From a virus, in the IMG/VR virus record IMGVR_UViG_3300029684_000026, positions 1 to 29,724 of that record: 29,724 nt of DNA; one strand, 5' to 3'. Shown here in pieces: positions 3,084 through 29,325 of the stretch. The notes beneath the pieces are model-generated. The model was not told the DNA's origin, made no database searches, and saw nothing but the letters and a program-made list of their open reading frames with translations. The position numbers and the translations under genes were made by a program. Within the stretch, counting starts at the first letter, position 1; the number at the start of each line of letters is the position of its first letter.

Positions 3084-3212
3084 GTCATCTATGGTAATGT
3101 TATGGTTCCTGCTGCTTGAGAATTTGGTTGGTTGTTGACAATATTCTTCTGTCTGTGTTTCAGGCTACTGTTTTTTTTGCTTGTCTTTGACAATCTCTTT
3201 TCCCGGCTTTAT

Positions 3213-3617
3213 TTATTTTTTGGCAAGTAAAATATACAGCGTGTACCAAAGTACAGCCACTACGGCACCTCCCAGAATATAACCCATTCCAATACCAATT
3301 AACCCTGCTTCAAAACTTACAATCCCCATAATGAAGCCCCCTCCTATCGATAGGGTTGCGAGAAATATAAGGACTGTGGAAAGAAAAGAATTACTTTCTT
3401 TGCGATTTGGAAGTTTCTTAGTAGAATAAGTTGTTTTATTGCTTTCCCTTAGTAATTCATCAGCCTTGAACCATTTATTTGTTCCTTCTGCGCAAATTAA
3501 TGTTTCAGGTCCTATGACATGATTTTTAATTAAAATTTGTAGTTGCCTGAATGATATGGGGCCTTTGACAACATTCCCGCAGAAGTAGAAATATTTCATG
3601 GCAACATCATACATCAT
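3213..3617 (-). CDS. GYF_2 (DUF4339)-like domain membrane protein
   Basis: 'KYFYFCGNVVKGPISFRQLQILIKNHVIGPETLICAEGTNKWFKADELL' fits the GYF_2 pattern. The C-terminal ~55 aa are Gly-rich and hydrophobic (about 2 TM helices). The gene is AT-rich. Confidence 0.6.
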   Translation of the reverse strand: MMYDVAMKYFYFCGNVVKGPISFRQLQILIKNHVIGPETLICAEGTNKWFKADELLRESNKTTYSTKKLPNRKESNSFLSTVLIFLATLSIGGGFIMGIVSFEAGLIGIGMGYILGGAVVAVLWYTLYILLAKK

Positions 3618-3629
3618 GATAATTTTTCT

Positions 3630-7046: not shown

Positions 7047-7583
7047 CTACAGCTTGGAATAGGCCTTCACTCCTTCCGCAATGGCTTCCGCAATGGCTTC
7101 GGGATGGTCCTTCATAAGGGCGGCATTTTCAGGATTGGTGATAAAGCCGCATTCGCACAGCACCCACGGGCAGCGCGTCCTTTTCAGGACGGCCAGCCCC
7201 GGACGGGCCAACACCGTGCAGTCCCGTCCTGGGAGCAGCCGGGCAAGAGGTTCCGCGATGCACATGGCAAGCCGGCTTCCCTTAACGCTCCCGGGATAGA
7301 AGCACACATGGGCGCCGTGAGCTTGCACATTATCCGATGAGTCACAATGCAGGGAAATCCCGAAGTCGTAGCCGCCTTCGTTGGCGGCCTTGATGGTGGC
7401 GTTCAGGTCGTCCGTGTTGCTCTGGGCCGGAAAGTCAATTACGTCCACCTGGGCGCCCAGCTTTCTGAGCATAGGCGCGAGGCGTTCCGTAATCGTCGCT
7501 GCTACGGCGTGTTCTTCAAACCTGTTTCCACGGGCTCCGGTGTTGTTGGCATGGCCTATATCAATGGCTATTTTCCTGGGTAT
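7047..7583 (-). CDS. N-acetylmuramoyl-L-alanine amidase (Amidase_3-type endolysin); start codon uncertain
   Basis: 'KIAIDIGHANNTGA', 'GISLHCDS' and 'VLCECGFITN' match Amidase_3 motifs. The first ATG is at 7472, but the frame is open to 7589 and the metal-ligand His motif lies upstream of that ATG. 7583 is an in-frame ATA. Confidence 0.8.
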   Translation of the reverse strand: MPRKIAIDIGHANNTGARGNRFEEHAVAATITERLAPMLRKLGAQVDVIDFPAQSNTDDLNATIKAANEGGYDFGISLHCDSSDNVQAHGAHVCFYPGSVKGSRLAMCIAEPLARLLPGRDCTVLARPGLAVLKRTRCPWVLCECGFITNPENAALMKDHPEAIAEAIAEGVKAYSKL

Positions 7584-7643
7584 TCTCCTTTAATTGATTG
7601 GTTATTAATATGTATGAACTTGTAAGAAAAACTTTACAGTTGA

Positions 7644-10819: not shown

Positions 10820-10902
10820 ACGGACGACCAGCGACTGGTTCAGCCCCGTGACGGTCCGGATATCGTATTTGCCTGCCTGCTGCCTGGGAAAAAAGAGGAT
10901 GC

Positions 10903-10921
10903 GGGGGCGCAGCGCGCCCCC
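10903..10921 (-). terminator. GC hairpin, possible intra-operon terminator or attenuator
   Basis: GGGGGCGC-AGC-GCGCCCCC forms a perfect 8-bp stem. On the minus strand a T6 run follows after an 8-nt spacer, so it is not a textbook terminator. Confidence 0.4.
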
Positions 10922-10933
10922 TGGTGAAACGCG

Positions 10934-11491
10934 TCAGGAACCCGGCGCCGGCGTCACGTCCTGCACATTGGAGGGCGTGAACTGGTACTTGCCGCGATAA
11001 TCCATTTCGAACTCGAACTGGGGTGAAGCAATCGCCGTGGTGTGTTCGGGATCCTGCAGGAGGCGCAAGGCGCCATGCGCCGTTCCGACCAGATAGATAG
11101 TACCCACGTCGTTCTGATACCAGAAGTGAAGATACCCCTCAATCTTATTGTCGCCGCCATGTCCGACGGTGGTCGATTCCTCGCCGTTGGCGGGAGGCGC
11201 TCCCAAGGCGAAAGAAAGCTGGAACCATTCGGGGGACATGTCCGGCGTGGTGAAGGTCATCCGCTTGCCGGTCGTGGTGTTCTTGCGCTGCTGGCGATAT
11301 CCCAGCGCACCGCCGTAAAAGCGCGTCACTTCCCCTTCGACCTGGGTGGCGACGGACTGGAACGCTCCCAGCAGCCCGAAGCTCACCCAGGGCTGTTCAG
11401 GCCCGGCGGTCGGATCCGTTGGCGGAGACGTCGGAGGCGTCGGAAACTGGTCCGGCCCGGTGACGTAAGAAGCTCCCTCGTCTTCGGTCAC
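10934..11491 (-). CDS. Hypothetical virion protein (start uncertain)
   Basis: 185-aa ORF from a GTG start. The same frame stays open upstream to 11635 with plausible coding sequence. Confidence 0.5.
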   Translation of the reverse strand: MTEDEGASYVTGPDQFPTPPTSPPTDPTAGPEQPWVSFGLLGAFQSVATQVEGEVTRFYGGALGYRQQRKNTTTGKRMTFTTPDMSPEWFQLSFALGAPPANGEESTTVGHGGDNKIEGYLHFWYQNDVGTIYLVGTAHGALRLLQDPEHTTAIASPQFEFEMDYRGKYQFTPSNVQDVTPAPGS

Positions 11492-11598
11492 CTTGATGCC
11501 GTCGGGGAGGAAAATAGCCAGAACGCCGGTAATCTGCGGCGTGACGTTGCGGTTCGTGAATGTGGGATCGTATGTAGTTGCCCTGGTGCTTGAAACGG

Positions 11599-14779: not shown

Positions 14780-15664
14780 TTAATCGCCGGTGGCCGTCGC
14801 GTCGATGCGGACGATGGCGCTGGGGTTCGTCAACTTGGTCAGCGAGTAGACGCGGTTGGTGACGAGCGTCAAGGCCGGCGTCGGCTTGTATTCAGTGATG
14901 ACTTCGCGGCGAAGCTTGCCGGAAAGCCCGAAGGTTTTGACGGCGGAGGCGTCGAACTGCGTCGGGGAGTCTTCCTTGTACAGGACGTAGACTTCGTTTT
15001 CCATGATGGTTTTCGCGTCGCCGGAAGCGTCGCGGTACGGCATGGAGGCGATGTAAATATCCCGGATGGGCCGGATCAGAGCCATGCGAAGCAGGTCTTC
15101 ATTGAACAGGCCGACGCTGTTGAAGGAAACCACCTGACGCGCCAGCGGATTGGACCTAAGTAGCTGCCATGCGTTGACGCCGAAGACAATCGTGGTCGGG
15201 AAGTGTCCGGTTGCGGCGTTGATGGACAGGATTGCCTTGTCCAGCTGATCCAACGGGTTTTTCTGCGGGTTGGCCCAGTCGCCCATCCCGGAAGCGGCCG
15301 GAAGCTGGCTCATCAGAAGCTTGGCGCGTTCGTATTCGTACGACGTCACAAACTGGGATTCGATGAGTTTGTATTCCGCCAGGGTGATGGCCTGCGCCTT
15401 TTCCCGGTTGACGCCCAGCAAGGCGTCAGGGATGGGCAGCGTCAAGCCGTAGCCCTGAAGGGTGTCGGTTTCGTTTCTGCCGCGCAGGACGGTCTGGCGG
15501 GGAGGTTCGCCCGGTCCCACCTGGATGGGCTGGACGGTGAAGGCCGATTCCGTGTCCCAGACCTTGTACTGGAAATTCAGGTCATAGACCGGGACGATCG
15601 GAGCGATGCGGCTGATGATGGAGTTCTCTTCGGTGTTCCCGGACCCCGCGGAATAGGAGGTCAG
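14780..15664 (-). CDS. Major capsid protein (HK97-fold, lambda gpE / Mu gpT-like); start uncertain
   Basis: Follows the protease/scaffold and decoration genes. The first canonical start is GTG at 15520, but the frame is open to 15727 and encodes protein-like sequence ('IISRIAPIVPVYDLNFQYKVWDTESAF'). 15664 is an in-frame CTG. Confidence 0.7.
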   Translation of the reverse strand: MTSYSAGSGNTEENSIISRIAPIVPVYDLNFQYKVWDTESAFTVQPIQVGPGEPPRQTVLRGRNETDTLQGYGLTLPIPDALLGVNREKAQAITLAEYKLIESQFVTSYEYERAKLLMSQLPAASGMGDWANPQKNPLDQLDKAILSINAATGHFPTTIVFGVNAWQLLRSNPLARQVVSFNSVGLFNEDLLRMALIRPIRDIYIASMPYRDASGDAKTIMENEVYVLYKEDSPTQFDASAVKTFGLSGKLRREVITEYKPTPALTLVTNRVYSLTKLTNPSAIVRIDATATGD

Positions 15665-15740
15665 GACATCGGTGAACTGAACGGCGGAGCAAAATGGAGT
15701 AGCCCTTGTTCTTGGTCTTTCTGTTGGTTAGGGTTAATAG

Positions 15741-16193: not shown

Positions 16194-17306
16194 TTAACGT
16201 TGGGCGGAGACGATGAAGCCCTCTTCGGTCGCCTTCTGGTAGGCGTCATAGCGCTTCATGCCGTCCTTGATGAGTTCGTTCACGCGGTTGTTGAATCCGT
16301 CAATGGATTCCTTCTTGCGGAATGGGTCAGGGGGATTCAGCGTCGCGCGGCGGTTCAGAGGCGTCCTTTTCGGCAGTTCCTTCTTTTCCTCCTGATCCGG
16401 TTTTTTGGGCGGAGTCTGGCGGTTGAGCGCACGGATAAAAGCGTTCAGCGCGGCGGGGCTTTCCCGGAGAGAGTTTTTCAGCTCTTCCCGGCGTTCTTCC
16501 GTGAATTCCTCGCGTTCTTCCTCGTCCAGCGCGTTTTCGTACGTGCTGACGGCGTCGTCCACTTCGGCGTTCACGTGGTCTTTCTCACGCTTTTCCAGCG
16601 AGAGCAGTTCATCAAGGCGTCCGAGGATCGCCCTGCTCATGTCGTCGGTGCCGTCAAATTCGACATCCAGCTTGTCAAGCAGGGAGTCGAACAGGGCCCG
16701 CTGGGCCTTGTCCATCTCCTTGGACGGATATTCTCTATCGTCGTTTTCCATATTGGTTTTCTGGGTTGTTTCCCCCTCTTCGGGGCTTTTGGGGTCGCCC
16801 CCGGCCTCGTCGGAGGCGGGGGAAGTCTGTCGGTTGACCAGAGGCCGCTTTCCCTTGATGCGCGGCCGGTTGGTCAGAGCGAAGCCGGTCAGACGCGACG
16901 GGCGGTAGACGCCGTCCGTCAAAGTCATGCCTTCGCCATATTCGGTGGATGATTGCGTGTATTCCTTGTCCTGCAGCATCTTCAGGCCGCGCGGCGTCCA
17001 TTCGATGAACCCGTAGAGTTCCAGCGTGCCGGAAGGGTCGCGGTAGGTGTCCAGCCTCTTGAGCCATCCGAGGGCCCGAGTATCGCGGGAAAGGTCGTGG
17101 CTCAGGTGGTCGCCGTCGATGAGCATGCCCGGGCCGTCAAAGGTGCGGGCGTTGAAGTCGTCCACCATGTCCCGGATCGCCTGCTCGTCGATGCGCAACA
17201 CGGCGGGACCCTCGCCGTAGTCAACGTCATGGTCTCCGCTTTTCTCAACGTGGAACCAGCCGTTGGCGGGTCGGGACAGGTCATTGATTTGTTTCGTGCT
17301 GATCAT
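16194..17306 (-). CDS. Mu gpI-like prohead protease / scaffold
   Basis: 'MLIDGDHLSH...ALGWLKRL...LELYGFIEWTPRGLKMLQDKEYTQSSTEY' parallels the Mu-like_Pro pattern (iDyeH..AaGWi..Lwa.veWT...eyry.SP). The C-terminal half is charged and scaffold-like. Confidence 0.65.
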   Translation of the reverse strand: MISTKQINDLSRPANGWFHVEKSGDHDVDYGEGPAVLRIDEQAIRDMVDDFNARTFDGPGMLIDGDHLSHDLSRDTRALGWLKRLDTYRDPSGTLELYGFIEWTPRGLKMLQDKEYTQSSTEYGEGMTLTDGVYRPSRLTGFALTNRPRIKGKRPLVNRQTSPASDEAGGDPKSPEEGETTQKTNMENDDREYPSKEMDKAQRALFDSLLDKLDVEFDGTDDMSRAILGRLDELLSLEKREKDHVNAEVDDAVSTYENALDEEEREEFTEERREELKNSLRESPAALNAFIRALNRQTPPKKPDQEEKKELPKRTPLNRRATLNPPDPFRKKESIDGFNNRVNELIKDGMKRYDAYQKATEEGFIVSAQR

Positions 17307-18729
17307 CGGTAAATCCTTTCATGAGTCCGGCGTAAATCATTTGCTGAAGCTGTTCATAAGCATCGGGCGGAATGAGTGCTTTTTCCGGTTCCCTGTTGGC
17401 CGCCGCCGTCACCGGAACGGGGTCCTGCGTGTCCTCGATCGACATGCCGATCTTTTCTTCAATCTCGGTCTTCTCGGGGCGGACGCCTCCGTCGGCAAGC
17501 GCGGCGATTTCCTCGGCTTTCTGCAGCGGGGTCTGGACGGTGTCAAAAGTGATGTGGAGGCGGGCCAGCGGTTCGCCGTCTCCCAGGACAAGCGGGCTGA
17601 TGGCGGCGTTAAAAGCTTCGGCGACCTTGGAACAGACCGCGGAGACGACCGAATTCCAGCTGTCCGTGTGCGCTCCCCCGGCCAGCGTGCCGGATCCTGA
17701 TTCATTCAGGACGGTCAGAGTGCCGGCCATTACAAACCGCACCTGGTCCTTGTCGGACATGTTGATTCGGGATAGGAAATAGTTTTCGTTGATGTTGGAG
17801 GCTTTCAACGGTTCGGCGGTGCAGCCGGGAGGAAGCACAATGGAGGCTCCCGATTTGAGTTCCTCACAGGCCCGTTCCAGCGCGTCCATGACGGCGGCGC
17901 TCGCGTCCTTGGGCGCCGTGATGATGACCGGGGCGCTCCCGTAGCGGTCCATATGGTTGTCCCACGTAACTTTGGCGTGATTCCGCTCAAAAGAGGCGCG
18001 GGTTGCCGGAAAAAGAATGGGGTTCCGGTGCTCCATGACCACGAGCGTTTCTTCCTCTACGCTCTCGCCCGTGTCGACCCCGATGTAGCACTGGGGATTA
18101 AACTGCCATTCGTTCAGCTCTCCGGGCCGCACCCAGTATCGCTGCGGGATGAATTCAAAGCGGCGGCCCCAGGAATCTTCGATGTATTGGAGGTGGGCGT
18201 ACCCGTAAAACATAGCGGAGGCCAACTGCCCAAAGGCCTGTTGAAGTCCGGTGACGGAGTGATAGAATTCTTCCAGCGCGTTCTGCTGACGCTGGGCTTC
18301 CGGGCTGTCGTCCGCGGCGTCAATCTTCCATCCCTGCATGGAGACGCTTTCAATGAGCCGGGAATAGAGCATGCCCATCAAGCCGTCCGAGTAGATGACC
18401 TCGTCCCAAATGAGCATTTGGCGGGCAAAGGCTCCACGCCGCGCTTCGTTCCGGGCGTCAATCAGGGTTTGCAGGTCGGCGCCCTGTAACGGGTCCCAAT
18501 ATTCGTACCATTGAGGCTGGTTAGGCTTCCGGCTCTGTTCCGTCAACGCTCGCCGGGCCAGGTCCGTTTCAAGCTCCTTGATTCTGGTCTCCTGTTGGGC
18601 TACCAGCTTCGGGGCGTTGAGGATATTTTTGACGGCGTTAAACCTGAGGCTAAAGAAAAGGTGGTTGCAGGGGAAGGAGTTGGACCTTCGATTCGGGGAC
18701 AGGAACCCCGCGTGATACCGTTTCACCAC
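17281..18729 (-). CDS. Portal protein (possibly Mu gp29 / DUF935-type)
   Basis: 482-aa ORF between TerL and the protease/scaffold. Only a GTG start is available, and the first ~30 aa look non-native. Confidence 0.6.
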   Translation of the reverse strand: MVKRYHAGFLSPNRRSNSFPCNHLFFSLRFNAVKNILNAPKLVAQQETRIKELETDLARRALTEQSRKPNQPQWYEYWDPLQGADLQTLIDARNEARRGAFARQMLIWDEVIYSDGLMGMLYSRLIESVSMQGWKIDAADDSPEAQRQQNALEEFYHSVTGLQQAFGQLASAMFYGYAHLQYIEDSWGRRFEFIPQRYWVRPGELNEWQFNPQCYIGVDTGESVEEETLVVMEHRNPILFPATRASFERNHAKVTWDNHMDRYGSAPVIITAPKDASAAVMDALERACEELKSGASIVLPPGCTAEPLKASNINENYFLSRINMSDKDQVRFVMAGTLTVLNESGSGTLAGGAHTDSWNSVVSAVCSKVAEAFNAAISPLVLGDGEPLARLHITFDTVQTPLQKAEEIAALADGGVRPEKTEIEEKIGMSIEDTQDPVPVTAAANREPEKALIPPDAYEQLQQMIYAGLMKGFTDDQHETNQ

Positions 18730-18782
18730 CCTGCGATTGCTTACATATCGTCATATATTGATATCTTAATATGTTGTCAACC

Positions 18783-20120
18783 CTAATATCTCCCGTAAGC
18801 GCGTTTTGATGACACGGGACGGGCGTACCAGGCTCCCAGCGTCCGCGCCAGTCCGCTGTTCCGGCGCGCGTGCCAGGCCATCACAAGGGCGTCGGCCCGG
18901 TCTGGGGAACGAACGCCCCGCTTTGCCATATCTTCTTTGCTTTCAATGCGGACGCGGCCTATTGCGTCGGTTTGGAGTCGTGGAGCAACCAGCTGCTCAA
19001 TCGTATCCTCGTCAATGTCGAGGATGAGTTCTTTTTCTTCGATGGCGCGGGCGAGAGCCCGCCATGCTTGGGCGCGGAGGTTGACAAAGGCTTGTGTGTC
19101 ATCTGCCGGGAAGCCTCCCCGGTAGGAGTGCACGGGGAAACCCTCAGCCCGGAAGTCGTCAATGATGGGAAGCCCCAGTCCGTCGCCGTCGGCAAAGATG
19201 CGGTCGGCAGAGATGCCGAGTTCGGCGGCCTTTCGGCGGAAACGTCCGCGCGCTCCTACAGTGTCTGGGTCGGCCCAGTGGTCGGCGATGAAAAAACGGT
19301 TGCCCTGTCCGGCCGCGAAGACATTCTCATCACCCCCGGCGGCGAAGTCAAAGCCGCCGCAGGTCTCCCCGGTGTCCAAAAAGGGAGGCGGGTTGTTGAG
19401 CAGCTCCATGATGGCGCGGCGGGAAATGACGGATTGCCCGTCAAGGTCCGTGAATTCGCCGAGGATGGCCGAGCGGTAGAAGGAGGACTGTTCGCCGTAT
19501 TCTTTTTTCAGGCGTTCGGCCTTGCCTGGATCGTTGATTTCGATGTGCGGGCAATCCTCGTATTTAACGCGGATTTTGTAGTAGAGGGATGAATTTTTGT
19601 GGAAGCAGTCGTAAAAGGTTCCGGAATCGGCACCCGGCGACGAGGTGATGAACGCGTTGAAGAGCGTGCAGCGGGAAACAGCGGTGAAGATGGAGTCGGG
19701 AATGGTCTTGGCTTCGTCCAGGACGTAAAAGACGGGATCCACGTCGGGCGAGATTTTCGGATGCCACCCTTCTGCGCGTCCCGCGTTGTCGGTTGAGAAT
19801 CCCACGGCAAATCCTCCTTCCGGCGTGCGGATTTCGGTTTTGTTGAATGTCCAGCCGTCAAAGAAAGGGTTATCCATATAGCGGCGAAGCGCGGGAAAGA
19901 GCTGTTTTTCTACCTGCATCCATGATGATGACGTGACTGGCACCTGACCCCGAGGAAAATAGGTAAGGAAACACAGGATTGCGGGCGCAATGGATAGGCT
20001 CGTCTTTCCCGATCCGTTCGGAGCAACCATGGCCACGCTTCGACCTCCCAGCCTCACCTTTCCAAGAAGCAATGCCTTGATGGCCTCGATTTGCCAGGGA
20101 TAAGGATCGAGTCCGAGAAT
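18783..20120 (-). CDS. terL: Terminase large subunit; start uncertain
   Basis: Walker A 'APNGSGKT' and Walker B 'VFYVLDEA'. The first canonical start is TTG at 20072, but 'ILGLDPYPWQIEAIKA' lies upstream in the same frame. 20120 is an in-frame ATT. Confidence 0.85.
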   Translation of the reverse strand: MLGLDPYPWQIEAIKALLLGKVRLGGRSVAMVAPNGSGKTSLSIAPAILCFLTYFPRGQVPVTSSSWMQVEKQLFPALRRYMDNPFFDGWTFNKTEIRTPEGGFAVGFSTDNAGRAEGWHPKISPDVDPVFYVLDEAKTIPDSIFTAVSRCTLFNAFITSSPGADSGTFYDCFHKNSSLYYKIRVKYEDCPHIEINDPGKAERLKKEYGEQSSFYRSAILGEFTDLDGQSVISRRAIMELLNNPPPFLDTGETCGGFDFAAGGDENVFAAGQGNRFFIADHWADPDTVGARGRFRRKAAELGISADRIFADGDGLGLPIIDDFRAEGFPVHSYRGGFPADDTQAFVNLRAQAWRALARAIEEKELILDIDEDTIEQLVAPRLQTDAIGRVRIESKEDMAKRGVRSPDRADALVMAWHARRNSGLARTLGAWYARPVSSKRAYGRY

Positions 20121-20162
20121 GTGACGGAGGAAGAAGCTGACGGGGAGATGGTTCCTGCTCGA

Positions 20163-20642
20163 TTAAGGGTGGAGTTTGCCGGCAATGGTTTCCAGCGCGG
20201 TTTTCTCGTCTTCCCGGAGCTGGGCAAGCTGCTCGGGGTCCAGGGTGATTTTGCGTTCCAATGGAGCGCCGGGAACGCCCGCTACATCCTGCCGGACTCG
20301 GTCGCCGAATTTCTCGGGGGCAAAACGGGCGGCAACTTTCAGCCGCGTTTCAATGGCGAGCTTCTTGGCAGCGACGGAGGCGGATCCGCATTCGGGGTCG
20401 AGGGCAACCTGGGCAGCGGCATCTGACAAAGACTGACACTCGTCGAGCATGGCTTCTGACTGCGCTTCCCGCGCGCGTTGAATGAGTTTACAAAACTCTT
20501 CCCGTTCGTGCCTCCATCTCCAGACAGTTAAAACCTCCGGCATGTGATCGTCCGAGCAAATGGACTTCATCGTTTCCCCGTTGGCTAAACGGGAGGCTAT
20601 CTCGTCGGCTAATGCCTCCGTATAGAGGCTGGGCCGTCCTAT
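20163..20642 (-). CDS. terS: Terminase small subunit; start uncertain
   Basis: 'GRPSLYTEALADEIASRLANGETMKSICSDDHMPEVLTVWRW...EF...ARE.Q' matches a common TerS N-terminal HTH pattern. The first ATG is at 20570, inside that pattern. 20642 is an in-frame ATA. Confidence 0.7.
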   Translation of the reverse strand: MGRPSLYTEALADEIASRLANGETMKSICSDDHMPEVLTVWRWRHEREEFCKLIQRAREAQSEAMLDECQSLSDAAAQVALDPECGSASVAAKKLAIETRLKVAARFAPEKFGDRVRQDVAGVPGAPLERKITLDPEQLAQLREDEKTALETIAGKLHP

Positions 20643-20748
20643 TTTCTTGTTGGCGGTAGGTGATTGCTTCTTTTTCCTGCAGGTCTACTCTAGAGGACAA
20701 GTAGCTAGCAAATCAAGCACTCTGTTTGTTCATTCCTTTCTGGGCCCA

Positions 20749-21965: not shown

Positions 21966-23270
21966 ATGACCGCACAAGAATTTATCGACTGGCTTCAAAC
22001 TGCCAACAATCTTCCAAATCCTACCCAAGCTGTAAAAAGGGCCGCGCAGATGATGCGGGTGACGGAAGATGCTGTTTGGAAGTGGCTAAATACTAAAAAA
22101 CCACATCCCACGCCTGAATACATGCAATTGCTCATGGAGTTATTGCATGAAAAATACCGAGAAAAGAGGTTTCACCGCATTCTTTCTCACGAACAGCGTG
22201 AAGAAATGCGGTCCATGTTGGGCAAAAAACCTGATCTGGAAATCGCCGAGCTACTCGGAATAGCGCGCGTCACGGTCCAGACTGAACGCTATAAATTAGG
22301 TATCAAAAAGTATTGCAGCCCTGAAGCAATCCGCATCCAACACGATGAAGAGCTTATTGCAGTGCTCGGAAAAATTCCTGACTCGGAGTGTGCCAAGAAG
22401 TTTGGATACTCAAATTCCAGAGTAGCCTACCTTAGAAAGAAATTAGGGATTAAGTCATATAGGGGGCCGCGTAAACCCCGTCAGCCACGAGACCCAAATA
22501 AACCACACAAGAAAAAAGAGTATCCCGAAGAGTTAATTAACATGCTTGGAAAGACCCCGGATGATGAAATTGCTAAAAAATTCGGTTATTCCAAGGCAGG
22601 AATTGCGCTTATTAGAAAAAAGATGGGCATTCCATCATTATCTGATACTAAATTCCCCGAAGAGAAACGCGAAGAAATGCTATCCATGCTTGGGAAAGTT
22701 CCTGATAGCGAAATTGCTGAAAGGCTTGGAATATCGCTTAATGTTGTAGCGCGGAACCGTAGAAAATTAAAAATTGCTCCAGCTCCATACTCTCCCATTA
22801 AGGATGCGGACAAGGATATAATTCTTAATTTATTGGGAAGAGTATCAGATTTAAAAATTGCAAAAAAAACAGGGTACAGCGTATATGTAATTAAAAAATT
22901 TAGAGAACAGAACAAAATTAAGCCTTTCAGTAAAAGCATTTTAGAAAGATTTTCACCGGACCAACGTAAAAAACTCTTATCTATGCTTGGGAAAGTTTAT
23001 GATAGAGTAATAGCCGAAAAATTTAATATTGATGACGAGGCAGTAAGAAGAATTAGACAGAAATTGAATGTTCCGGCATTACGTGAGGAAAAAAGCTTGC
23101 AAGAAACAATAGAAGGGGACGAATACATTAAATCCCTGCTGGGCACAATGACTGATAAAGAAGTCGCTAATAAAACAGGCAAATCAATACAAGTTATCGG
23201 AAAAGCAAGGAGAAAATTAAATATCCCGGCGTTTGATACAAGGGGGCGGTCTACAAAGAAACAATCTTGA
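21966..23270 (+). CDS. Protein with seven tandem HTH modules (sigma70 region 4 / GcrA-like) plus an N-terminal HTH-like segment
   Basis: 434 aa, AT-rich. Carries seven copies of the pattern L(L)GKxPDxEIAxKFGxSxxxVxxxRRKLxI(P), listed in the findings. Confidence 0.65.
   Translation: MTAQEFIDWLQTANNLPNPTQAVKRAAQMMRVTEDAVWKWLNTKKPHPTPEYMQLLMELLHEKYREKRFHRILSHEQREEMRSMLGKKPDLEIAELLGIARVTVQTERYKLGIKKYCSPEAIRIQHDEELIAVLGKIPDSECAKKFGYSNSRVAYLRKKLGIKSYRGPRKPRQPRDPNKPHKKKEYPEELINMLGKTPDDEIAKKFGYSKAGIALIRKKMGIPSLSDTKFPEEKREEMLSMLGKVPDSEIAERLGISLNVVARNRRKLKIAPAPYSPIKDADKDIILNLLGRVSDLKIAKKTGYSVYVIKKFREQNKIKPFSKSILERFSPDQRKKLLSMLGKVYDRVIAEKFNIDDEAVRRIRQKLNVPALREEKSLQETIEGDEYIKSLLGTMTDKEVANKTGKSIQVIGKARRKLNIPAFDTRGRSTKKQS
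22191..23225 (+). repeat. Intragenic array of seven ~40-aa HTH repeat units
   Basis: The repeats are also visible at nucleotide level, for example atgcttgggaaagtt at about 22684 and about 22981. Confidence 0.8.
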
Positions 23271-23332: not shown

Positions 23333-24121
23333 CTATTCCCGGAGGTTGTAGTTGATCTCACGGTACGATTGCCAATCACACGTGATGATGGTGCCGCATA
23401 GATGGATGCGTGAAACAATGGCCGGGCCGAGGCGATCCTCCAGGGCGGCGGGGCTGTAGTTGGCAATGATGATGGTCGGCTTGCCGTTCTGGTGCCGGTA
23501 GTCAATGAGCCGTTCCAGCGCCGGGCCTGTAAAGTCCGTGTCCTTTACCTCGTGATACTCGTCCAGGACCAGCAGATAAGGCGACTTGTAGCGGGCCATG
23601 ACAGAGGATTCAGAGCCGCCGCCGTTGAACGTCTCCCGCAGGGCCATCGTGTAATCATAGGCCTTGGTATAGAGGACGCGCTTCTTGCGCCGGTACATGA
23701 CGCGGGCAAGAAACGTGCTTAAAACCGTTTTCCCGGTGCCGTAGCGTCCGTTTAGTACAATGATACTCCCAGGAGTCAAAACAAGGCGATAGGCATCACG
23801 GAGGGCCTTCTTCCATGGTTCTCCGGTCACTTCGTCGAGGCAATCAATCGCCCGGCGAGGAAAGCCTCGGTCAACCAGGCCCAGGCGTTCATAGGTTGCC
23901 TTGCGTTCTTCCTCCCGCTGTTTCTCGGCGGCGAGCGCTTCCGCTTCCAGTTCTTCAATGCTTCTTCCGTCATCCGTGGCAAGCGCTGTCATGGATGCCA
24001 AGAGGCTTTCAATGTCGGCACCTTTGAGGGCGTGCCGGGCGTCAATGGGGTCGTCAGTCTGTCCAGAGTTCATCTCTTCGTGATGGTTTAGGTGTTGATT
24101 TTGATGCGGTTCCCGCGGCAT
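23333..24121 (-). CDS. DnaC/IstB-like AAA+ helicase loader
   Basis: Walker A 'GRYGTGKT' and Walker B 'LLVLDEYHE'. Lies downstream of the replication organiser. An alternative ATG is at 24073. Confidence 0.75.
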   Translation of the reverse strand: MPREPHQNQHLNHHEEMNSGQTDDPIDARHALKGADIESLLASMTALATDDGRSIEELEAEALAAEKQREEERKATYERLGLVDRGFPRRAIDCLDEVTGEPWKKALRDAYRLVLTPGSIIVLNGRYGTGKTVLSTFLARVMYRRKKRVLYTKAYDYTMALRETFNGGGSESSVMARYKSPYLLVLDEYHEVKDTDFTGPALERLIDYRHQNGKPTIIIANYSPAALEDRLGPAIVSRIHLCGTIITCDWQSYREINYNLRE

Positions 24122-24809
24122 TGGCGGGCTTTAAGCCAGCTTCGGCCGCGTTGTTGCGGGCCCAGGTGGCGGCGTATTGGCGGGCCAGGGGCCGCCAGTC
24201 CGCCAGGGGGATGCCGTGCTTGTTTTTCCAGCCAACGGCGGCTTGCTCGTTAAAAAACCGTTCGGCGCACCGGGTAAGCTCGTCTCCGAGCGGGTGCAGC
24301 ACTTGAGCGGCCATGAAGCGGTCAATTTCGGACACGTCCTGCGGAAATTGGCAGACTTCGCGCCCGGTTGTAGTTGGTGTAGTAGTATTATCTTCTCTTC
24401 TCTTCTCTGGTAACGGTTTTTGTAACGGTTCGGGCGTTACATCTGTAACGGTTTCATCGTTACGTCCTTTTCGGTGATTCGCAACTCGGCGGTTCGTATT
24501 GGCCCTATTCTTAGCGGTTTGGCCATTATGGCGGTCAAAATTGGGGATTGAAAGGAGTCCATTGCGTCCATTCAACCAGCCGACTTTGACAAGCCCAGCG
24601 GCGAAACCGGGGCAGAATACGAGACGGTCGAGAAACGAATTTGTAACGGTGATAGCGTTACCAGAGACGGATTGTTGATCAGCCCAAATCCAAAGGCGCA
24701 GCAGCTTTCCAACCACGGCATCCTGATCAATGCCGAGCATGTCGGCCAACTTCACCACTTCCGGCTTGTCGGGTGTTGTGTGTTCAACCTTTATCCAGTC
24801 TCCGGCCAT
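24054..24809 (-). CDS. Replication organiser / initiator-like protein
   Basis: The ATG at 24807-24809 gives 'MAGDWIKVEHTTPDKPEV...', typical of phage replisome-organiser N-termini. The gene contains an iteron cluster in its linker region. Confidence 0.5.
   Translation of the reverse strand: MAGDWIKVEHTTPDKPEVVKLADMLGIDQDAVVGKLLRLWIWADQQSVSGNAITVTNSFLDRLVFCPGFAAGLVKVGWLNGRNGLLSIPNFDRHNGQTAKNRANTNRRVANHRKGRNDETVTDVTPEPLQKPLPEKRREDNTTTPTTTGREVCQFPQDVSEIDRFMAAQVLHPLGDELTRCAERFFNEQAAVGWKNKHGIPLADWRPLARQYAATWARNNAAEAGLKPANAAGTASKSTPKPSRRDELWTD
24410..24463. repeat. Iteron cluster, candidate origin of replication
   Basis: Five copies of the GTAACG core fall within 54 bp, three of them as (T/G)GTAACGGTT and two inverted. 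The cluster is flanked by (TCTTC)3TCT at 24391-24408. A further inverted pair lies at 24643-24661. Confidence 0.6.
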
Positions 24810-24814
24810 ATATA

Positions 24815-25345
24815 CTATATCCCCTCCTTCTCTTTTGCTTCTGCGCCAAATGCAGGTGAGAGCTGTATTTTCCTGCCTTGAACAGTATTGATTTTTAGCG
24901 GCTTCTGGATGTACAGGCATGCGGTCAAAAGGCTCCTTTCAGCGGCGTAGTTTGCCTCACGGAAATGTCTGCTGTACCGAACTATCCGAACCCGTCCGCC
25001 AGGGAGGACATACAGTAATCCCCACCGTTCCGGCAGGTCATCTTCTGTGATGATCCCCGGCTCACAGATGTAGTATCGGCAATACCCCATACCCTTTTGA
25101 GGACGGAGGCGGAACGGCTTTTTGAGGTCTGCCAAAAAATCCGCCCGGCTGGTTTTAGCCTCAACGAGGATGCTATACGATCCCTTGAAACCTATAGCGT
25201 CGGGCTGCTCGTCCGTAACGATGCAGTTCGGTTCCGCGATCGCCACCCGGCAACGGGCAGAGCCCATGAGCCAGCGTTCAGCAATTTCGCATAATTCCCG
25301 GTGCGTCCGCGGGATTAAAGATGTTGGTTTACGCGCCATAATCAA
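24815..25345 (-). CDS. PD-(D/E)XK nuclease, MmcB-like
   Basis: 'PDAIGF...SILVEAKTSRADFLADLKK' provides the D...E-x-K motif. TTG at 25345, or ATG at 25339. Confidence 0.4.
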   Translation of the reverse strand: MIMARKPTSLIPRTHRELCEIAERWLMGSARCRVAIAEPNCIVTDEQPDAIGFKGSYSILVEAKTSRADFLADLKKPFRLRPQKGMGYCRYYICEPGIITEDDLPERWGLLYVLPGGRVRIVRYSRHFREANYAAERSLLTACLYIQKPLKINTVQGRKIQLSPAFGAEAKEKEGI

Positions 25346-26127
25346 AAAAGCGTCAGTTGGGGGTTGTAGTTAATCCACAGGCATTCCACACGTGGACTGC
25401 TCATGTTGGAAATGGTCTTGATGGAGTCCTTGTGCCAGCCCTGCAGGGCGGAGTTGTAAAGCTCGTTATCATAGCCGGACAACACCACCTTGCCCTGCAG
25501 CGTGACCAGGACGTTGAGCAAGCGCCGGTGATCGTCCTCCGTGTACTCATGGCTGTATCGCCCCGTCCTGGTGCGCGTGGCTGGCATGTAAGGCGGGTCA
25601 ACGTAGTGGAGTGTTTCCGGCCCGTCGTGGGCCTGTAAGACGTCAAGGGCGTCCCGGTTTTCCACGTGGACGTGCTTTAACCGCTGGGTGGCCAGCCGCA
25701 GAGTTTCCGGCAGCCGGTCCCAGTCGGTAGCCGGAGAAGGCACCCTGTTCCGGCTTACGAGTAAGCCGGAACGTCCATCCCTGAAAGAGTCGCTTGCAAT
25801 CCCCATCCAGGAGCGCACTAGCAGACGCCGGGCACGCTCCACGGCATCACCTGCAGGGGCGGAGTCGTTGAGCTCGTCACGGCTGTATGGGGTCAGCATG
25901 ACGGCCTCAAGCAGCCGTCCGGCGTCCTCACTGCGGAGGACGCGGAACAGGTTGACAATCTCGCCGTCTTTGTCATTGCAGATTTCCACCGGCGCCGGGG
26001 CCTTGTTGAGCAAGACACCCAGGCTTCCGCTGTATGGCTCCACATAGCAAGTGTGAGCCGGGAAATGCCGGATAATCCACGGGGCAAGGCGGTTTTTACC
26101 GCCTAAATATCGCAGTACGGCTTTCAT
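25342..26127 (-). CDS. Dam-type (D12 class) N6-adenine DNA methyltransferase
   Basis: 'LRYLGGKNRLAPWI', 'YVEPYSGSLGV' and 'HYVDPPY' match the class motifs. The ATG at 26125-26127 overlaps the upstream stop (ATGA). Confidence 0.85.
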   Translation of the reverse strand: MKAVLRYLGGKNRLAPWIIRHFPAHTCYVEPYSGSLGVLLNKAPAPVEICNDKDGEIVNLFRVLRSEDAGRLLEAVMLTPYSRDELNDSAPAGDAVERARRLLVRSWMGIASDSFRDGRSGLLVSRNRVPSPATDWDRLPETLRLATQRLKHVHVENRDALDVLQAHDGPETLHYVDPPYMPATRTRTGRYSHEYTEDDHRRLLNVLVTLQGKVVLSGYDNELYNSALQGWHKDSIKTISNMSSPRVECLWINYNPQLTLF

Positions 26128-26726
26128 AACCACTTCACAATAGTTTGATTGTTATATCCTTTGACCCAGTGAAACCAAGCGTAGGCAATGGCGCCGCCTT
26201 CGGTTTTGGAAAAATCCCCGTTTTTGGCGCAGGTCCGCCGCTCGCTGAATACCCACACGTCGGAGGGGGGGGCAACGTCGAACAACCGGCGCCGGGCCTT
26301 GCCCTCTAAAAACTGGAGACGCAGAAGCATCCAGACATTGGCTCCATCCTTGACGCAGGCAAGCGCACGCTCGACAAATTCAAGGGCTGTGGCGTAGGGA
26401 GGATTGGTCATAATATCCACGTCTCCTATCTCGCCATCGTCGAACTCCCACAAGAAATCTTGTACGCAGGAATCAGGACATCCACGGTCAACAATGTCGG
26501 TTGCACAGACTTCATGCCCCCGCTCCCGCAGGACATTGACGATATGACCAGCTCCGCAGGCTGGTTCCCATACCCGCTGACGGAGAGGCGCGCCAGCGTT
26601 GAGCAGATCCCGCACCATGTCCGGATCGGTGGCGTAATAGTCTTCCCTCGGCCTTTCACCGGTGGCGAGATAGGATGCTCCCAGCGTAGCGCCAAGCGTC
26701 CTTTTATTCCCTGTCCAGTCCTTCAT
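26124..26726 (-). CDS. Small N6-adenine DNA methyltransferase (NPPY motif)
   Basis: Motif I 'VWEPACGAGH' and motif IV 'MTNPPYA'. 200 aa. Confidence 0.7.
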   Translation of the reverse strand: MKDWTGNKRTLGATLGASYLATGERPREDYYATDPDMVRDLLNAGAPLRQRVWEPACGAGHIVNVLRERGHEVCATDIVDRGCPDSCVQDFLWEFDDGEIGDVDIMTNPPYATALEFVERALACVKDGANVWMLLRLQFLEGKARRRLFDVAPPSDVWVFSERRTCAKNGDFSKTEGGAIAYAWFHWVKGYNNQTIVKWL

Positions 26727-27025
26727 AATGCCTCCTTTCTCGGCTCCCAGTTATTGGGAATTTCGTCGTCAATACCTGTGCAACAAAAACAAGGAGAACC
26801 AAATTTCGTGTCGCGATAAAGGTGCATGCAATTGTTGCAATTTCGCTCCTTTAAAGGCACCCACGCCCTGCACGCGGCCCGCTTCTGCCAGGCTTCACAT
26901 ACATAGTTCTCGTAGAATTCTCTTAAAGTTTCTTCCCGGTATGCAAAGTCCGTCTTAAAGAGCCGAAGAGCCTCACGGGCTTTCCCGTACTCGTAAAAAG
27001 CTTTCTGTTCAGGCGTCAGTTTCAT
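26723..27025 (-). CDS. Cys-rich hypothetical protein
   Basis: The ATG at 27025 gives 'MKLTPEQ'. The C-terminal cluster 'CNNCMHLYRDTKFGSPCFCC' suggests metal binding. Confidence 0.45.
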   Translation of the reverse strand: MKLTPEQKAFYEYGKAREALRLFKTDFAYREETLREFYENYVCEAWQKRAACRAWVPLKERNCNNCMHLYRDTKFGSPCFCCTGIDDEIPNNWEPRKEAL

Positions 27026-27347
27026 TTTCGGCCCCTCCCTTCTGTTCAAGTTCCCACGGATATGTGTCGATTTTACCGTCAACCAAAGTTCGGAATATTA
27101 AGTTTCCTTGTTCTTCGTCGAATCTATCATCTACCGCCGCAAGATCGCCTGTTATCCCATATTCGTTTTCAACAGGATCACCGCCCCCATTATGAAGCAA
27201 ATAATCCAATGGTTCACCGTTTTTATCTTCTGTAATAACATGTAGACCATTATTCCAACCAACGATCGGATAAATACATCCTGCGACAAAACCTCCTGAT
27301 GATACTAAGCAAAGGCATTCTCTATATGTTTTCTTAAATCTATTCAT
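27009..27347 (-). CDS. Hypothetical protein
   Basis: The ATG at 27347 gives 'MNRFKK'. 112 aa, locally AT-richer, no motif recognised. Confidence 0.4.
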   Translation of the reverse strand: MNRFKKTYRECLCLVSSGGFVAGCIYPIVGWNNGLHVITEDKNGEPLDYLLHNGGGDPVENEYGITGDLAAVDDRFDEEQGNLIFRTLVDGKIDTYPWELEQKGGAENETDA

Positions 27348-27348
27348 T

Positions 27349-27690
27349 TCAATTTTCTCCTTCCTGGATTGTTTCGATTTCCCAACCCGTTTTTGTCTGC
27401 TTGGCAGCGATAAAAACAAAGGGGAACTTGTCGGCGGCGGTCTTGATTTTTACCCTGGCGTCGTCGCGCCAGAAGCCTTTCACCTCGTGGAATTCAAGGG
27501 TGCCGTCAGGGCGGACAACCATGAAATCCGGTGTGTATGAGCAGCGGTTCCCCAGGATCAGTTTGACGGCTTCAAACTTGAATTCCCGTATCTCCCCTTT
27601 GTTTTGGAGGTCAGACAGGTAAAAGCCATAGGCGGCTTCCGTTTTGTTCATCACGCCGGGCCGGTGGATAGCTCTTGCCTTCGTTCTCAT
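27349..27690 (-). CDS. Small PD-(D/E)XK nuclease, DUF1064-like (possible junction resolvase)
   Basis: 'SYTPDFMVV..x9..FHEVKG' provides the motif. 113 aa, adjacent to the exonuclease/RecT pair. Confidence 0.5.
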   Translation of the reverse strand: MRTKARAIHRPGVMNKTEAAYGFYLSDLQNKGEIREFKFEAVKLILGNRCSYTPDFMVVRPDGTLEFHEVKGFWRDDARVKIKTAADKFPFVFIAAKQTKTGWEIETIQEGEN

Positions 27691-28376
27691 GCCGCCCTCC
27701 CTTCTGCTGCCGGGCGGATGCGCGGCATAATGAGATCGTATTTATCCCGATATTCCGCTTTAAATTCATCCAAGGCTTCCTTGATTTTGTCCGTGTATTC
27801 ATCCCACTCCACCTTGATGACAAACGGACGCAGGCCCCGGCAGTAGGAAATGAAATACCATGTCCGCAACCCCGTCACGGCCATAGAGCCGTGAACTTGC
27901 TGCCGGTAGTCATCTGGCAGCACGCCGTTGAGCAGGTAAAGAGCATGTGTCTTGGAGAGAGGGCACTTGATTTCCAGTCCGGCAATGTAATCGCCAGACG
28001 CATCAACAATGAGTCCGTCAGGGCTGCACCCAACCGGGCCGTCTTTGCAAAGGACAAACCCCACTTCCTTGACAGTCAGTCCGGTTATTTTTCTGAATTC
28101 GTCCCTGGCTTCCGGTTCCAGTTCTTCTCCCCGGTCCGTGTGGCGGTTTCCTTCCCATTGGATTTCATCAGGACGGAGGAAAGAGCAGCACAATTCAATA
28201 ATCAGGGCGCCCCACGGGCCCCTTTCTTTGTTGTTCTTGGGCTGGGGTTTGCGTCCCGTAGGGGTAAGCAGCCTGTCAAAATTGCTGGCCGTCAGGCGTC
28301 CGGAGCGCAACTTGAACCACGCTTCCGAACGCTGGGGCACGTTCTCGTAAACGGTACAATTCGATGATAGGCTCAT
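27687..28376 (-). CDS. YqaJ-type (lambda Exo-like) recombination exonuclease
   Basis: 'QRSEAWFKLRSGRLTASNF' and 'CSPDGLIV...GLEIKCP' match the YqaJ pattern. Paired with RecT. Confidence 0.8.
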   Translation of the reverse strand: MSLSSNCTVYENVPQRSEAWFKLRSGRLTASNFDRLLTPTGRKPQPKNNKERGPWGALIIELCCSFLRPDEIQWEGNRHTDRGEELEPEARDEFRKITGLTVKEVGFVLCKDGPVGCSPDGLIVDASGDYIAGLEIKCPLSKTHALYLLNGVLPDDYRQQVHGSMAVTGLRTWYFISYCRGLRPFVIKVEWDEYTDKIKEALDEFKAEYRDKYDLIMPRIRPAAEGRAA

Positions 28377-28377
28377 G

Positions 28378-29325
28378 TCAATAGTCCTCCCTGCTGATGG
28401 TTACGGGCTCTTTCGGCGCGGGCATCTTCAGTCCGGGAATAAGGTCATTCTGTCCTTCCGGCTCCGGTTCCGGCAGGGCTTCCGGTTGGTCGTTTTGGAA
28501 TTCTTCAGGTGCTGGCGCGTTGTTCCACGGGGTTTCCCCTTCGGCGGGTCCATCGGTTTTTTCCGGGGTTACATTCCGCATTTCGCTTCCAAATTCCTGT
28601 TCGTCGGAGACGCTCATGGCTTGCTGGATATACAAGGGCAAATCCCATTGCTTGGAGGCGCGCTTGATCACTGTTTTCAAGCCCATTTGTTCAAAATCGG
28701 TTTTCCAGGGTCCTACGATTTCCCCCTTCTTGTTACGGGAGTTGGAGCGGGCCATGATATCATTGACGGCTTTCAGACTCATCCGCTCCCCGTGCAAGTA
28801 GCTATCCTTGTCTGTCCAGATACAGTAAAAACCCCTGATGGGTTTCTTGTCGTCATCCCATCCGGGGGTGTGACCCATGACAAATTTCCCGTCCTCGATA
28901 TTCCAGTAAAACGGCTCTCCCTCACGTGCAATGCCAATGTTGAGGTTGGTGACGCCATTGGAGCGGGCCATACGCATCAGGCCGCGGGCGGAGGGCACCG
29001 GCACGCAGGTTAGCACGGGCTTTCCGGTTGCCTTGTCTTTAGCCCAAAATGGAACAAGATAGCCGTGGATGCCGTCAGGCTCACAACGCATCATCAGCAG
29101 GTTTTTCAGGGATGCAATCAGCGTTACAGGGGCGCATTGCTGAAGGAGTGGGGTTTTCTGGCAGCAGTGCCAGAAGATACTGATACAGCGTTCCGGCGTC
29201 ATCATGCCCTCTACAAGCTGGGCAATGTGGTTCTTCACGTCCTCGGACATCACAATTTCGTAGAGTGTCTTTTTCGGGACTGGCGCCTGGGGCAAATCTA
29301 GTTTATCTGTAGGTGCGTTACTCAT
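28378..29325 (-). CDS. recT: RecT-family single-strand annealing protein
   Basis: 'HGYLVPF', 'ARGLMRMARSNG', 'GFYCIWTDKD' and 'GPWKTDFEQMGLKTVIKRASKQWDLP' match the RecT pattern. Confidence 0.8.
   Translation of the reverse strand: MSNAPTDKLDLPQAPVPKKTLYEIVMSEDVKNHIAQLVEGMMTPERCISIFWHCCQKTPLLQQCAPVTLIASLKNLLMMRCEPDGIHGYLVPFWAKDKATGKPVLTCVPVPSARGLMRMARSNGVTNLNIGIAREGEPFYWNIEDGKFVMGHTPGWDDDKKPIRGFYCIWTDKDSYLHGERMSLKAVNDIMARSNSRNKKGEIVGPWKTDFEQMGLKTVIKRASKQWDLPLYIQQAMSVSDEQEFGSEMRNVTPEKTDGPAEGETPWNNAPAPEEFQNDQPEALPEPEPEGQNDLIPGLKMPAPKEPVTISREDY

Follow-up and report, generated by a model that had tools for sequence, protein, structure and literature searches.

The late region of the IMG/VR virus record IMGVR_UViG_3300029684_000026, of which positions 1 to 29,724 were analysed (29,724 nt, hereafter the window), carries a terminase large subunit gene, terL, whose conserved N-terminus is not preceded by any canonical start codon. 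The results make it very probable that terL starts at the AGG codon at 20156-20154 and that this codon is read by an initiator-type tRNA with the anticodon CCU, tRNA(CCU), which is encoded by the phage itself and would also serve seven other late genes. To our knowledge, bacterial and phage proteins are not known to be initiated other than by tRNA-fMet(CAU) on AUG or a near-cognate codon. The upstream gene terS, terL and the other late genes concerned all lie on the minus strand, and the coordinates of the features are collected in Table 1.

Between the terS stop codon and the TTG at 20072-20070, which is the first canonical start and opens a 429-codon terL open reading frame (ORF), there are 30 sense codons that translate as SSRNHLPVSFFLRHILGLDPYPWQIEAIKA. 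ATG, GTG, TTG and CTG are all absent from the terL frame of the interval, and the first three of these from every frame; ATT occurs in frame at 20120-20118 and ATC at two further in-frame codons. In the window, terS and terL form one common frame. The original prediction described these 30 codons correctly in every detail, and its assignment of the PWQ (Q-motif) segment to TerL, upstream of any canonical start, was borne out by profile alignment and by homologues. The phrog_2 profile (terminase large subunit; E=1.4e-24, residues 19-437) aligned from residue 19 of the 459-codon open frame, in which the TTG is residue 31. The C-terminal part matched the large terminase of PDB 8dkr; a Pfam search of TerL gave no match, and the identification came from PHROGs. 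The homologue search returned 603 proteins. Among the matches listed, the length was 440-476 aa, more than 100 had (P/Y)(Y/D/P)WQ about 25 residues before GSGKT, and the N-terminal pattern '...F(A/L)xxxLGxxxYxWQ' was shared, with the exception of a few N-terminally truncated calls (P0004, P0006 and P0008). The homologues therefore contain the segment and do not begin at LLGKVRLGG without PWQ. In the TerL of the window, PYPWQ lies 22-27 residues ahead of GSGKT and is conserved among the homologues. The protein is organised like a TerL, with an N-terminal ATPase that carries the Q (adenine-binding) motif some 25 residues ahead of Walker A and with a nuclease at the C-terminus.

The comparison was based on about 40 IMG/VR contigs with a TerL 88-98% identical to that of the window (host Akkermansia muciniphila, L004), on the more distant lineages L001-L003, L214 and L222-L224, and on one isolate relative, Akkermansia phage DTMo-2021a from strain NBRC 114322 (CP084202.1, L347), which is 85% identical over the terS-terL-tRNA module. 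Because about 40 independent assemblies and the cultured-isolate genome CP084202.1 all lack a canonical terL start, its absence is evidently not a one-off error. The CP084202.1 sequence was deposited without annotation as a separate linear 31.9-kb replicon assembled from a pure culture, and for that reason the DTMo-2021a prophage is suggested to excise or replicate spontaneously. Only passing mentions of the deposited phage were found in the literature.

The tetranucleotide CAGG at the beginning of terL was invariant in 36 of 36 unique relatives and always stood 9 nt before CCCGTCAGC, which places AGG in the terL frame; this frame is kept even where the terS stop is out of frame. Downstream of the AGG, the variable columns of terL at codon positions 1/2/3 numbered 8/2/21. 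Upstream of the AGG of terL, terS and the portal gene, nearly every column varies and the indels are non-triplet, and downstream of it insertions come in triplets. Because third-position variation and triplet insertions start at an AGG that is itself invariant, the alignments place the beginning of the translated region of all three genes at this codon. Moreover, the relative L046 reads ATG AGA CTC CCG GTC (MRLPVSFF), so that a canonical ATG stands one codon downstream of the AGG equivalent. The TTG with which P0001 of the commonest relative (MRHIL...) begins was considered as the conserved start of terL and rejected, as this codon varies between TTG, CTG, CTC and CTT and behaves as an internal Leu.

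That terL truly starts at the TTG or at the ATG of M45 and lacks the Q motif, or that the module represents a decaying prophage with mutated start codons, is hardly credible. Gene callers do choose these starts (P0006, 327 aa; P0008, 429 aa), and a GAGG stands 11 nt upstream of the TTG. However, the codons ahead of it are under purifying selection across about 40 phages, the same feature occurs in eight genes, and at the amidase gene the canonical alternative would delete the DxGH metal site. Decay is also opposed by the assembly of the phage as a separate 31.9-kb replicon from a cultured strain and by its abundance in viral contig collections.

The explanations put forward in the original prediction were initiation at the ATT, termination-reinitiation without a defined start codon, and readthrough of the TAA into a TerS-TerL fusion. 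ATT is a known rare bacterial start codon (infC), and in the window the TAA shares the terL frame, with just 6 nt separating it from the conserved region; nevertheless, these explanations are very unlikely, and the comparison has largely refuted them already. Among relatives the codon in question varies between ATT, ATC and GTC, and conserved residues (PVSFFLRH) are already encoded ahead of it. As for readthrough, the relatives do not keep the stop and the downstream ORF in one frame. The terS stop is TAA or TAG among them; L031/L032, L019, L039 and L041 have lost 1 nt between this stop and the conserved CAGG, which moves the stop out of the terL frame; and the junction is an overlapping TGATG in L003 and a 340-nt spacer in L002. 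Because the indels, the overlap and the spacer break the frame, the single frame shared by terS and terL in the window is incidental. The reinitiation idea survives in part: with the stop only 5-6 nt before the AGG, termination may help to deliver ribosomes, but a start codon would still be required. Nor can reinitiation account for the same anomaly in terS, the portal gene and the amidase gene, because terS is the first gene after a divergent promoter region, the portal gene follows the tRNA gene and the amidase gene has its own Shine-Dalgarno sequence. All three explanations leave the identical anomaly in seven other genes unaccounted for. What the original prediction had overlooked was the AGG two codons after the TAA and an initiator-like tRNA(CCU) downstream of terL.

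ARAGORN found one tRNA in the window, and the gene scored 52.7 bits against the Rfam tRNA model, with cmscan marking position 1:72 as non-standard. Its sequence is CGCAGGG-UG-GUGA-AACGGUA-UCAC-G-CGGGG-UUCCUGU-CCCCG-AAUC-GAAGG-UCCAACU-CCUUC-CCCUGCA-ACCA. The window copy combines the mismatch C1xA72 with G2:C71, C3:G70 and A73-CCA, and has the three initiator-type G:C pairs G29-31:C39-41 in the anticodon stem (CGGGG/CCCCG). In E. coli tRNA-fMet, C1xA72, G2:C71, C3:G70, A73 and G29-31:C39-41 serve formylation, EF-Tu exclusion and P-site targeting. The tRNA was aligned with the verified E. coli tRNA-fMet and the verified E. coli tRNA-Arg(CCU): its acceptor stem, U20 and G29-31:C39-41 are as in tRNA-fMet and unlike tRNA-Arg(CCU), which has G1:C72 and A20. 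A Watson-Crick 1:72 pair is needed for EF-Tu, and A20 is an identity element of arginyl-tRNA synthetase (ArgRS) in E. coli; an elongator tRNA-Arg(CCU) would have both, and the phage tRNA has C1xA72 and U20 instead.

Among the distinct variants of this tRNA, position 1:72 was CxA in 16 of 16, the CCU anticodon was invariant and the other acceptor pairs were 100% paired. The other 20 cloverleaf pairs were 98.8-100% paired in the 16 variants, nine of them with compensatory double changes, a level reached in 0 of 500 shuffles. C1xA72 was also present in the tRNAs of L003 and L214. These alignments show an architecture of the initiator rather than the elongator type that is under selection. The CAU anticodon of a tRNA-fMet, associated with Met charging and formylation, was not found, as all copies have CCU; by architecture and homology tRNA(CCU) is to be classed as initiator-type, and not as tRNA-fMet. 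When searched with a scaffold pattern blind to the anticodon, seven unrelated phage contigs matched in D-arm and acceptor, all with CAU (tRNA-Met, C1xA72). By this homology, the Akkermansia-phage tRNA(CCU) is recognisable as a member of a phage initiator tRNA family in which A35 has changed to C. Likewise, among the matches listed with the acceptor CGCGGGG...CCCCGCAACCA, 74 of 82 unique phage tRNAs have CAU and one has ACU. The same acceptor and the anticodon ACU are found in the unrelated phage contig L245 (minus strand, about 5102-5178 of the reverse complement; tRNA-Ser act in ARAGORN), which may represent another non-CAU initiator.

Further features of the tRNA locus were recorded. The T-loop of the window and L214 tRNAs starts with UCC and not with the near-universal UUC (position 55 is C). 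Upstream of the tRNA gene, at 18736-18785 on the minus strand, all relatives including L046 conserve a TTGACA followed by a dyad (ACATATt...GATATGT), which may be a regulated promoter or operator for tRNA(CCU); the promoter scan of the window did not call this element. L016, L017 and L047 are 99.9-100% identical to the window over terS and the 5' end of terL, yet they carry a different tRNA variant (A29:U41 type), which indicates recombination within the terS-terL-tRNA module. Pairing of G37 with the C at position -1 (a 'CAGG' quadruplet), for which PMC10018350 may be compared, was also considered. C(-1) precedes seven of the eight AGG starts, and L003, with U37, has AAGG at its portal gene. 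However, variants with A37 (L055 type) retain CAGG, C(-1) is common before ATG starts too, and the idea was left unproven.

In a survey of the window for open frames extending far ahead of the first canonical start, eight late genes were found to have an in-frame AGG at the expected N-terminus: terS, terL and the genes for the portal, the major head protein, a 216-aa protein, a collagen-repeat tail fibre, an endolysin amidase and a 725-aa protein. The remaining twelve of the twenty late genes have ordinary ATG starts. Internal AGG codons are rare (43 of 7330 codons, 5.9 per 1000), and the chance of finding AGG at 8 of 18-20 late-gene starts was P ~6e-14, or ~2e-8 with 5 codons of slack.

The amidase gene is the clearest case. 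Its start region reads ttaAAGGAGAatacccAGGaaaatagcc, that is, a consensus Shine-Dalgarno sequence, a 6-nt spacer and AGG (ribosome-binding site sequence AAGGAGAatacccAGG), and positions 1-173 of 174 of the Pfam profile Amidase_3 fall on residues 3-171 counted from this AGG. In relatives (loci L091-L138), the start codon is either ATG or AGG behind an identical Shine-Dalgarno sequence (aaaggagaata..c) and is followed by AAA ATA GCC ATT GAT. This polymorphism points to an ongoing, gene-by-gene gain or loss of dependence on the tRNA.

The open frame of terS starts 38 codons before the first ATG, with no ATG, GTG or TTG among them, and encodes ...KKIGRPSLYTEALADEIASRLANGET-M; position 1 of Pfam Sf6_terminase and position 3 of phrog_1482 align upstream of that ATG. 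The terS AGG was present in 36 of 36 relatives, with a downstream variation at codon positions 1/2/3 of 19/12/33. The sequence AGGAAAAAGAA is invariant and lies 6-9 nt after sigma70-like -10 boxes that differ among relatives. The candidate promoter of the window, read by eye, was below the threshold of the promoter scan; the homologous promoter of L001 (TTGAAT-18-TATAAT) scored 10/12 and likewise ends 8 nt before AGG. Because the -10 element ends so close to the AGG, the terS leader is suggested to be very short or absent. A +1 frameshift into terS from an upstream TTG ORF (20700) was rejected, since in L001 a stop codon closes this ORF, and conservation of the arrangement is lacking.

The portal gene has an in-frame AGG in 29 of 29 unique relatives (AAGG in L003), with a downstream variation at the three codon positions of 38/28/71, an indel-rich T/C tract upstream and its first ATG 76 codons further in. 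In the major head protein, positions 14-274 of phrog_1005 fall on residues 13-264 counted from the AGG. All 29 relatives have this AGG, and 62 codons separate it from the first canonical start. The in-frame CAGG of the 216-aa protein gene is invariant in 12 unique relatives; upstream of it the preceding gene ends and the relatives show an 8-nt indel. For the tail fibre gene, the in-frame CAGG is invariant in 10 unique relatives and the indels upstream are non-triplet. At about 10886-10925 on the minus strand, directly upstream of the fibre AGG, a GC-rich hairpin (cagggggcgcgctgcgcccccg) with a T-run is kept in relatives and looks like an intrinsic terminator or attenuator within the late operon.

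At terS, terL and the portal gene, the starts given in public gene calls are systematically wrong throughout this phage group (GTG 18729, ATG 20570 and TTG 20072 in the window; also the L001 gene calls). The portal ORF is called from the GTG at 18729, which lies inside the tRNA gene, and terS is called short at 135 aa. Public TerL clusters begin at a downstream TTG or ATG, with 448 aa (P0001), 429 aa (P0008) and 327 aa (P0006).

The tRNA and the AGG starts occur together. Every close relative with enough sequence has tRNA(CCU) at the same place and at least one AGG start. L003 (74% TerL identity) and L046 (88%) have the tRNA and a portal AGG without a canonical alternative, and their terL starts with ATG. 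CP084202.1 has the tRNA together with AGG at terS, terL, the portal gene and the fibre gene, and ATG at the amidase gene. The tRNA is absent from L002, L005, L006, L056-L060 and L222-L224; at the equivalent N-termini these relatives start with ATG, GTG or TTG. The pattern is the one that a reassignment of the start codon would leave, namely a tRNA, complementary starts at N-termini defined by homology, and interchange with ATG.

A reading in which AGG does act as the start codon but is decoded, as a near-cognate, by the host fMet-tRNA(CAU), the phage tRNA(CCU) being a codon-supplementing elongator or unrelated, is unlikely. Weak initiation by the native initiator tRNA at many codons, AGG among them, is described in work cited in 10.64898/2026.04.16.719103 and in the AGG-reporter part of PMC6868393, and terminase is needed only in small amounts. 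On the other hand, AGG is also the first codon of genes whose products are required in substantial amounts (major capsid, portal and endolysin), initiation factor 3 (IF3) specifically represses initiation at AGG (PMC6868393), and AGG starts are found only where the tRNA is present. An elongator role is opposed by C1xA72, kept in all 16 variants, which is the opposite of what an elongator needs, and the rarity of internal AGG leaves little demand for codon supplementation.

From the coding boundary with its invariant AGG, the interchange of ATG and AGG at one site, the initiator architecture of the tRNA and the co-occurrence of the two, we infer that AGG is decoded by tRNA(CCU). The AGG would pair in the ribosomal P site with the phage initiator tRNA, whose anticodon is CCU instead of CAU, and one tRNA would serve all eight genes. 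At terL, ribosomes ending terS 6 nt upstream may be handed over by coupling, with AGG still acting as the start codon. The initiation itself appears feasible, because an engineered pair works in E. coli: among 12 non-canonical pairs, i-tRNA(CCU) with an AGG start ranked first in each strain tested (35- to 402-fold induction), and it surpassed AUG in Nissle 1917 (10.64898/2026.04.16.719103). If so, efficient synthesis of the packaging, structural and lysis proteins would require expression and charging of the phage tRNA, and the outcome could be a translational lock or timer, or a private initiation channel, for the lytic programme.

Several observations weigh against this interpretation. With regard to the tRNA, U11:A24 is present in 16 of 16 variants including the window, in place of the initiator-typical A11:U24 (phage tRNA-fMet(CAU) genes on the same scaffold likewise have U11:A24), and in some variants the three G:C pairs of the anticodon stem are reduced to two (30:40 is G:C in 16 of 16, 29:41 is A:U in 2 and 31:39 is U:G in 2). 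The charging enzyme is not evident either, as U20 stands where E. coli ArgRS relies on A20, and methionyl-tRNA synthetase (MetRS) needs CAU; the CCU anticodon points to charging by ArgRS, though A20 is absent. With regard to the starts, most of the AGG codons have no obvious Shine-Dalgarno sequence and the choice among AGGs is not accounted for; L001-type relatives have a TTG nine codons downstream that could also serve terL; and the 725-aa gene, the weakest of the eight, has sequence context and no comparative support. Finally, the tRNA sits inside the late region, so that simple on/off gating is not obvious.

A possible variant of the system was seen in the sister lineage L214 (64% TerL identity), in which a tRNA follows terL (L214:2035-2110) with the same acceptor stem, C1xA72, A11:U24 and G29-31:C39-41, and with an 8-nt anticodon loop, AUCCCUUA. 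ARAGORN reported it as 'tRNA-???' with the 4-base anticodon ccct, and it was not called in the Rfam search. The terL of L214 (L214:579-700) has no canonical start before PYLWQ and reads TGC CCA GGT AAC TTC. Read as a triplet, AGG would be followed by TAA; AGGT read as a unit puts AAC, the conserved Asn2, in frame (cccAGGT|AAC). The L214 portal aligns from a canonical GTG. In a search for replicates of the tRNA with the 8-nt loop, pattern matching against viral contigs yielded chance hits only, and the relatives recovered by scanning metagenomes with P0008 were all at 37-38%. The quadruplet start is therefore to be taken as a lead from a single contig and not as a result. That tRNA(CCU) provides a private initiation channel, in which terminase, portal, capsid, fibre and endolysin are made only with this tRNA, and that L214 uses a natural quadruplet start codon, is a tentative extension that we regard as rather doubtful.

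Table 1. Positions of the proposed AGG starts, the tRNA gene and associated features in the window.
Feature	Position	Strand	Description
terS-terL interval	20073..20165	-	terS TAA 20165-20163, then 30 sense codons in the terL frame, up to TTG 20072-20070
terL, proposed AGG start	20154..20156	-	gagC AGG AAC CAT CTC CCC GTC; two codons after the terS TAA
terL, re-defined	18783..20156	-	457 aa from AGG; Q motif PYPWQ, Walker A APNGSGKT
tRNA, initiator-type, anticodon CCU	18662..18735	-	ARAGORN tRNA-Arg(cct); between terL and portal gene, 47 nt after the terL stop
terS, proposed AGG start	20676..20678	-	tgC AGG AAA AAG AAG; re-defined terS 20163-20678, 171 aa
Late-operon sigma70-like promoter, candidate	20687..20716	-	TTGATT-18 nt-TAGAGT; -10 ends 8 nt before the terS AGG
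Portal, proposed AGG start	18643..18645	-	ctC AGG TTT AAC GCC; re-defined portal gene 17281-18645, 454 aa
Major head protein, proposed AGG start	15704..15706	-	acA AGG GCT ACT CCA; coding sequence 14780-15706
216-aa late protein, proposed AGG start	11582..11584	-	Coding sequence 10934-11584
Collagen-repeat tail fibre, proposed AGG start	10883..10885	-	Coding sequence 8765-10885; directly after GC hairpin and T-run
Endolysin amidase, start region	7575..7589	-	Shine-Dalgarno AGGAGA 7589-7584, 6-nt spacer, AGG 7577-7575, then KIAIDIGHA; coding sequence 7047-7577
725-aa late protein, candidate AGG start	3108..3110	-	agC AGG AAC CAT, same 10-mer as terL; coding sequence 933-3110

Outside the genes discussed above, the window contains two low-GC islands (0.37-0.41 vs about 0.57), which are probably acquired cargo. 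The island at 21966-23270 on the plus strand encodes a 434-aa protein with about nine tandem helix-turn-helix-like repeats (LGKxPDxEIAxKxGxS...), and the island at 3000-5000 includes late-region genes for 616-aa and 134-aa (GYF_2) proteins. Genes for RecT, a YqaJ exonuclease, a D12 Dam methylase and an IstB/DnaC-like ATPase lie in the early region (23333-29325, minus strand). The portal, protease and head genes are of Mu type, but the phage is not a transposable Mu-like phage. No aminoacyl-tRNA synthetase, formyltransferase or initiation-factor genes were found in the window.

In full-text literature searches for prior art, neither a natural initiator tRNA with an anticodon other than CAU nor a description of AGG starts in Akkermansia phages came to light. 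If the interpretation is true, a natural non-CAU initiator tRNA with matching start codons would be a new kind of deviation from the genetic code, acting at initiation, and a natural counterpart of synthetic orthogonal initiation systems, offering a ready-made, evolved pair of initiator and start codon. In a phage of Akkermansia muciniphila that is common in the human gut, gene callers would then give at least eight essential genes a truncated or wrong start, and annotations of phage 'tRNA-Arg(CCU)' may hide initiators. It would also give a testable model of a temperate phage that locks its lytic proteins at the translational level.

The closest known systems include the bacterial and phage-borne tRNA-fMet genes (L177, L180, L202 and L211), which have in common with tRNA(CCU) the C1xA72 mismatch, G2:C71, C3:G70, A73-CCA, a G:C-rich anticodon stem and the D-arm/acceptor scaffold. 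In contrast to them, the phage tRNA has the anticodon CCU in the loop UUCCUGU rather than CUCAUAA and lacks A11:U24; it cannot be expected to read AUG and should not be a MetRS substrate. Compared with E. coli tRNA-fMet, its body has a short D-loop, U11:A24 and a UCC T-loop. Recoded gut phages carry suppressor tRNAs and in-frame TAG or TGA in late genes, for which a role in the timing or locking of the lytic programme has been proposed. As in that stop-codon recoding, a phage tRNA here would give a codon another meaning in a subset of late genes, those for structure and lysis, and gene callers mis-annotate the result; unlike it, the change would occur at initiation, where AGG gains a position-specific start meaning and internal AGG need not change. 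Poor start codons with a regulatory function, namely AUU in infC and GTC in Streptomyces sigR, are under IF3 control (PMC5472188). They likewise make translation conditional through a non-canonical start, but they rely on mispairing by the normal initiator, whereas a dedicated cognate tRNA is proposed here. The engineered E. coli initiators (i-tRNA(CCU)/AGG, i-tRNA-AAC/GUU and amber) are alike in combining an initiator body and a non-CAU anticodon with a complementary non-AUG start; of these, i-tRNA-AAC initiates only at GUU, with Val or formyl-Val (10.64898/2025.12.21.695813). The phage tRNA differs from them in being natural, phage-encoded and conserved in its lineage, and in probably serving a defined set of essential late genes.

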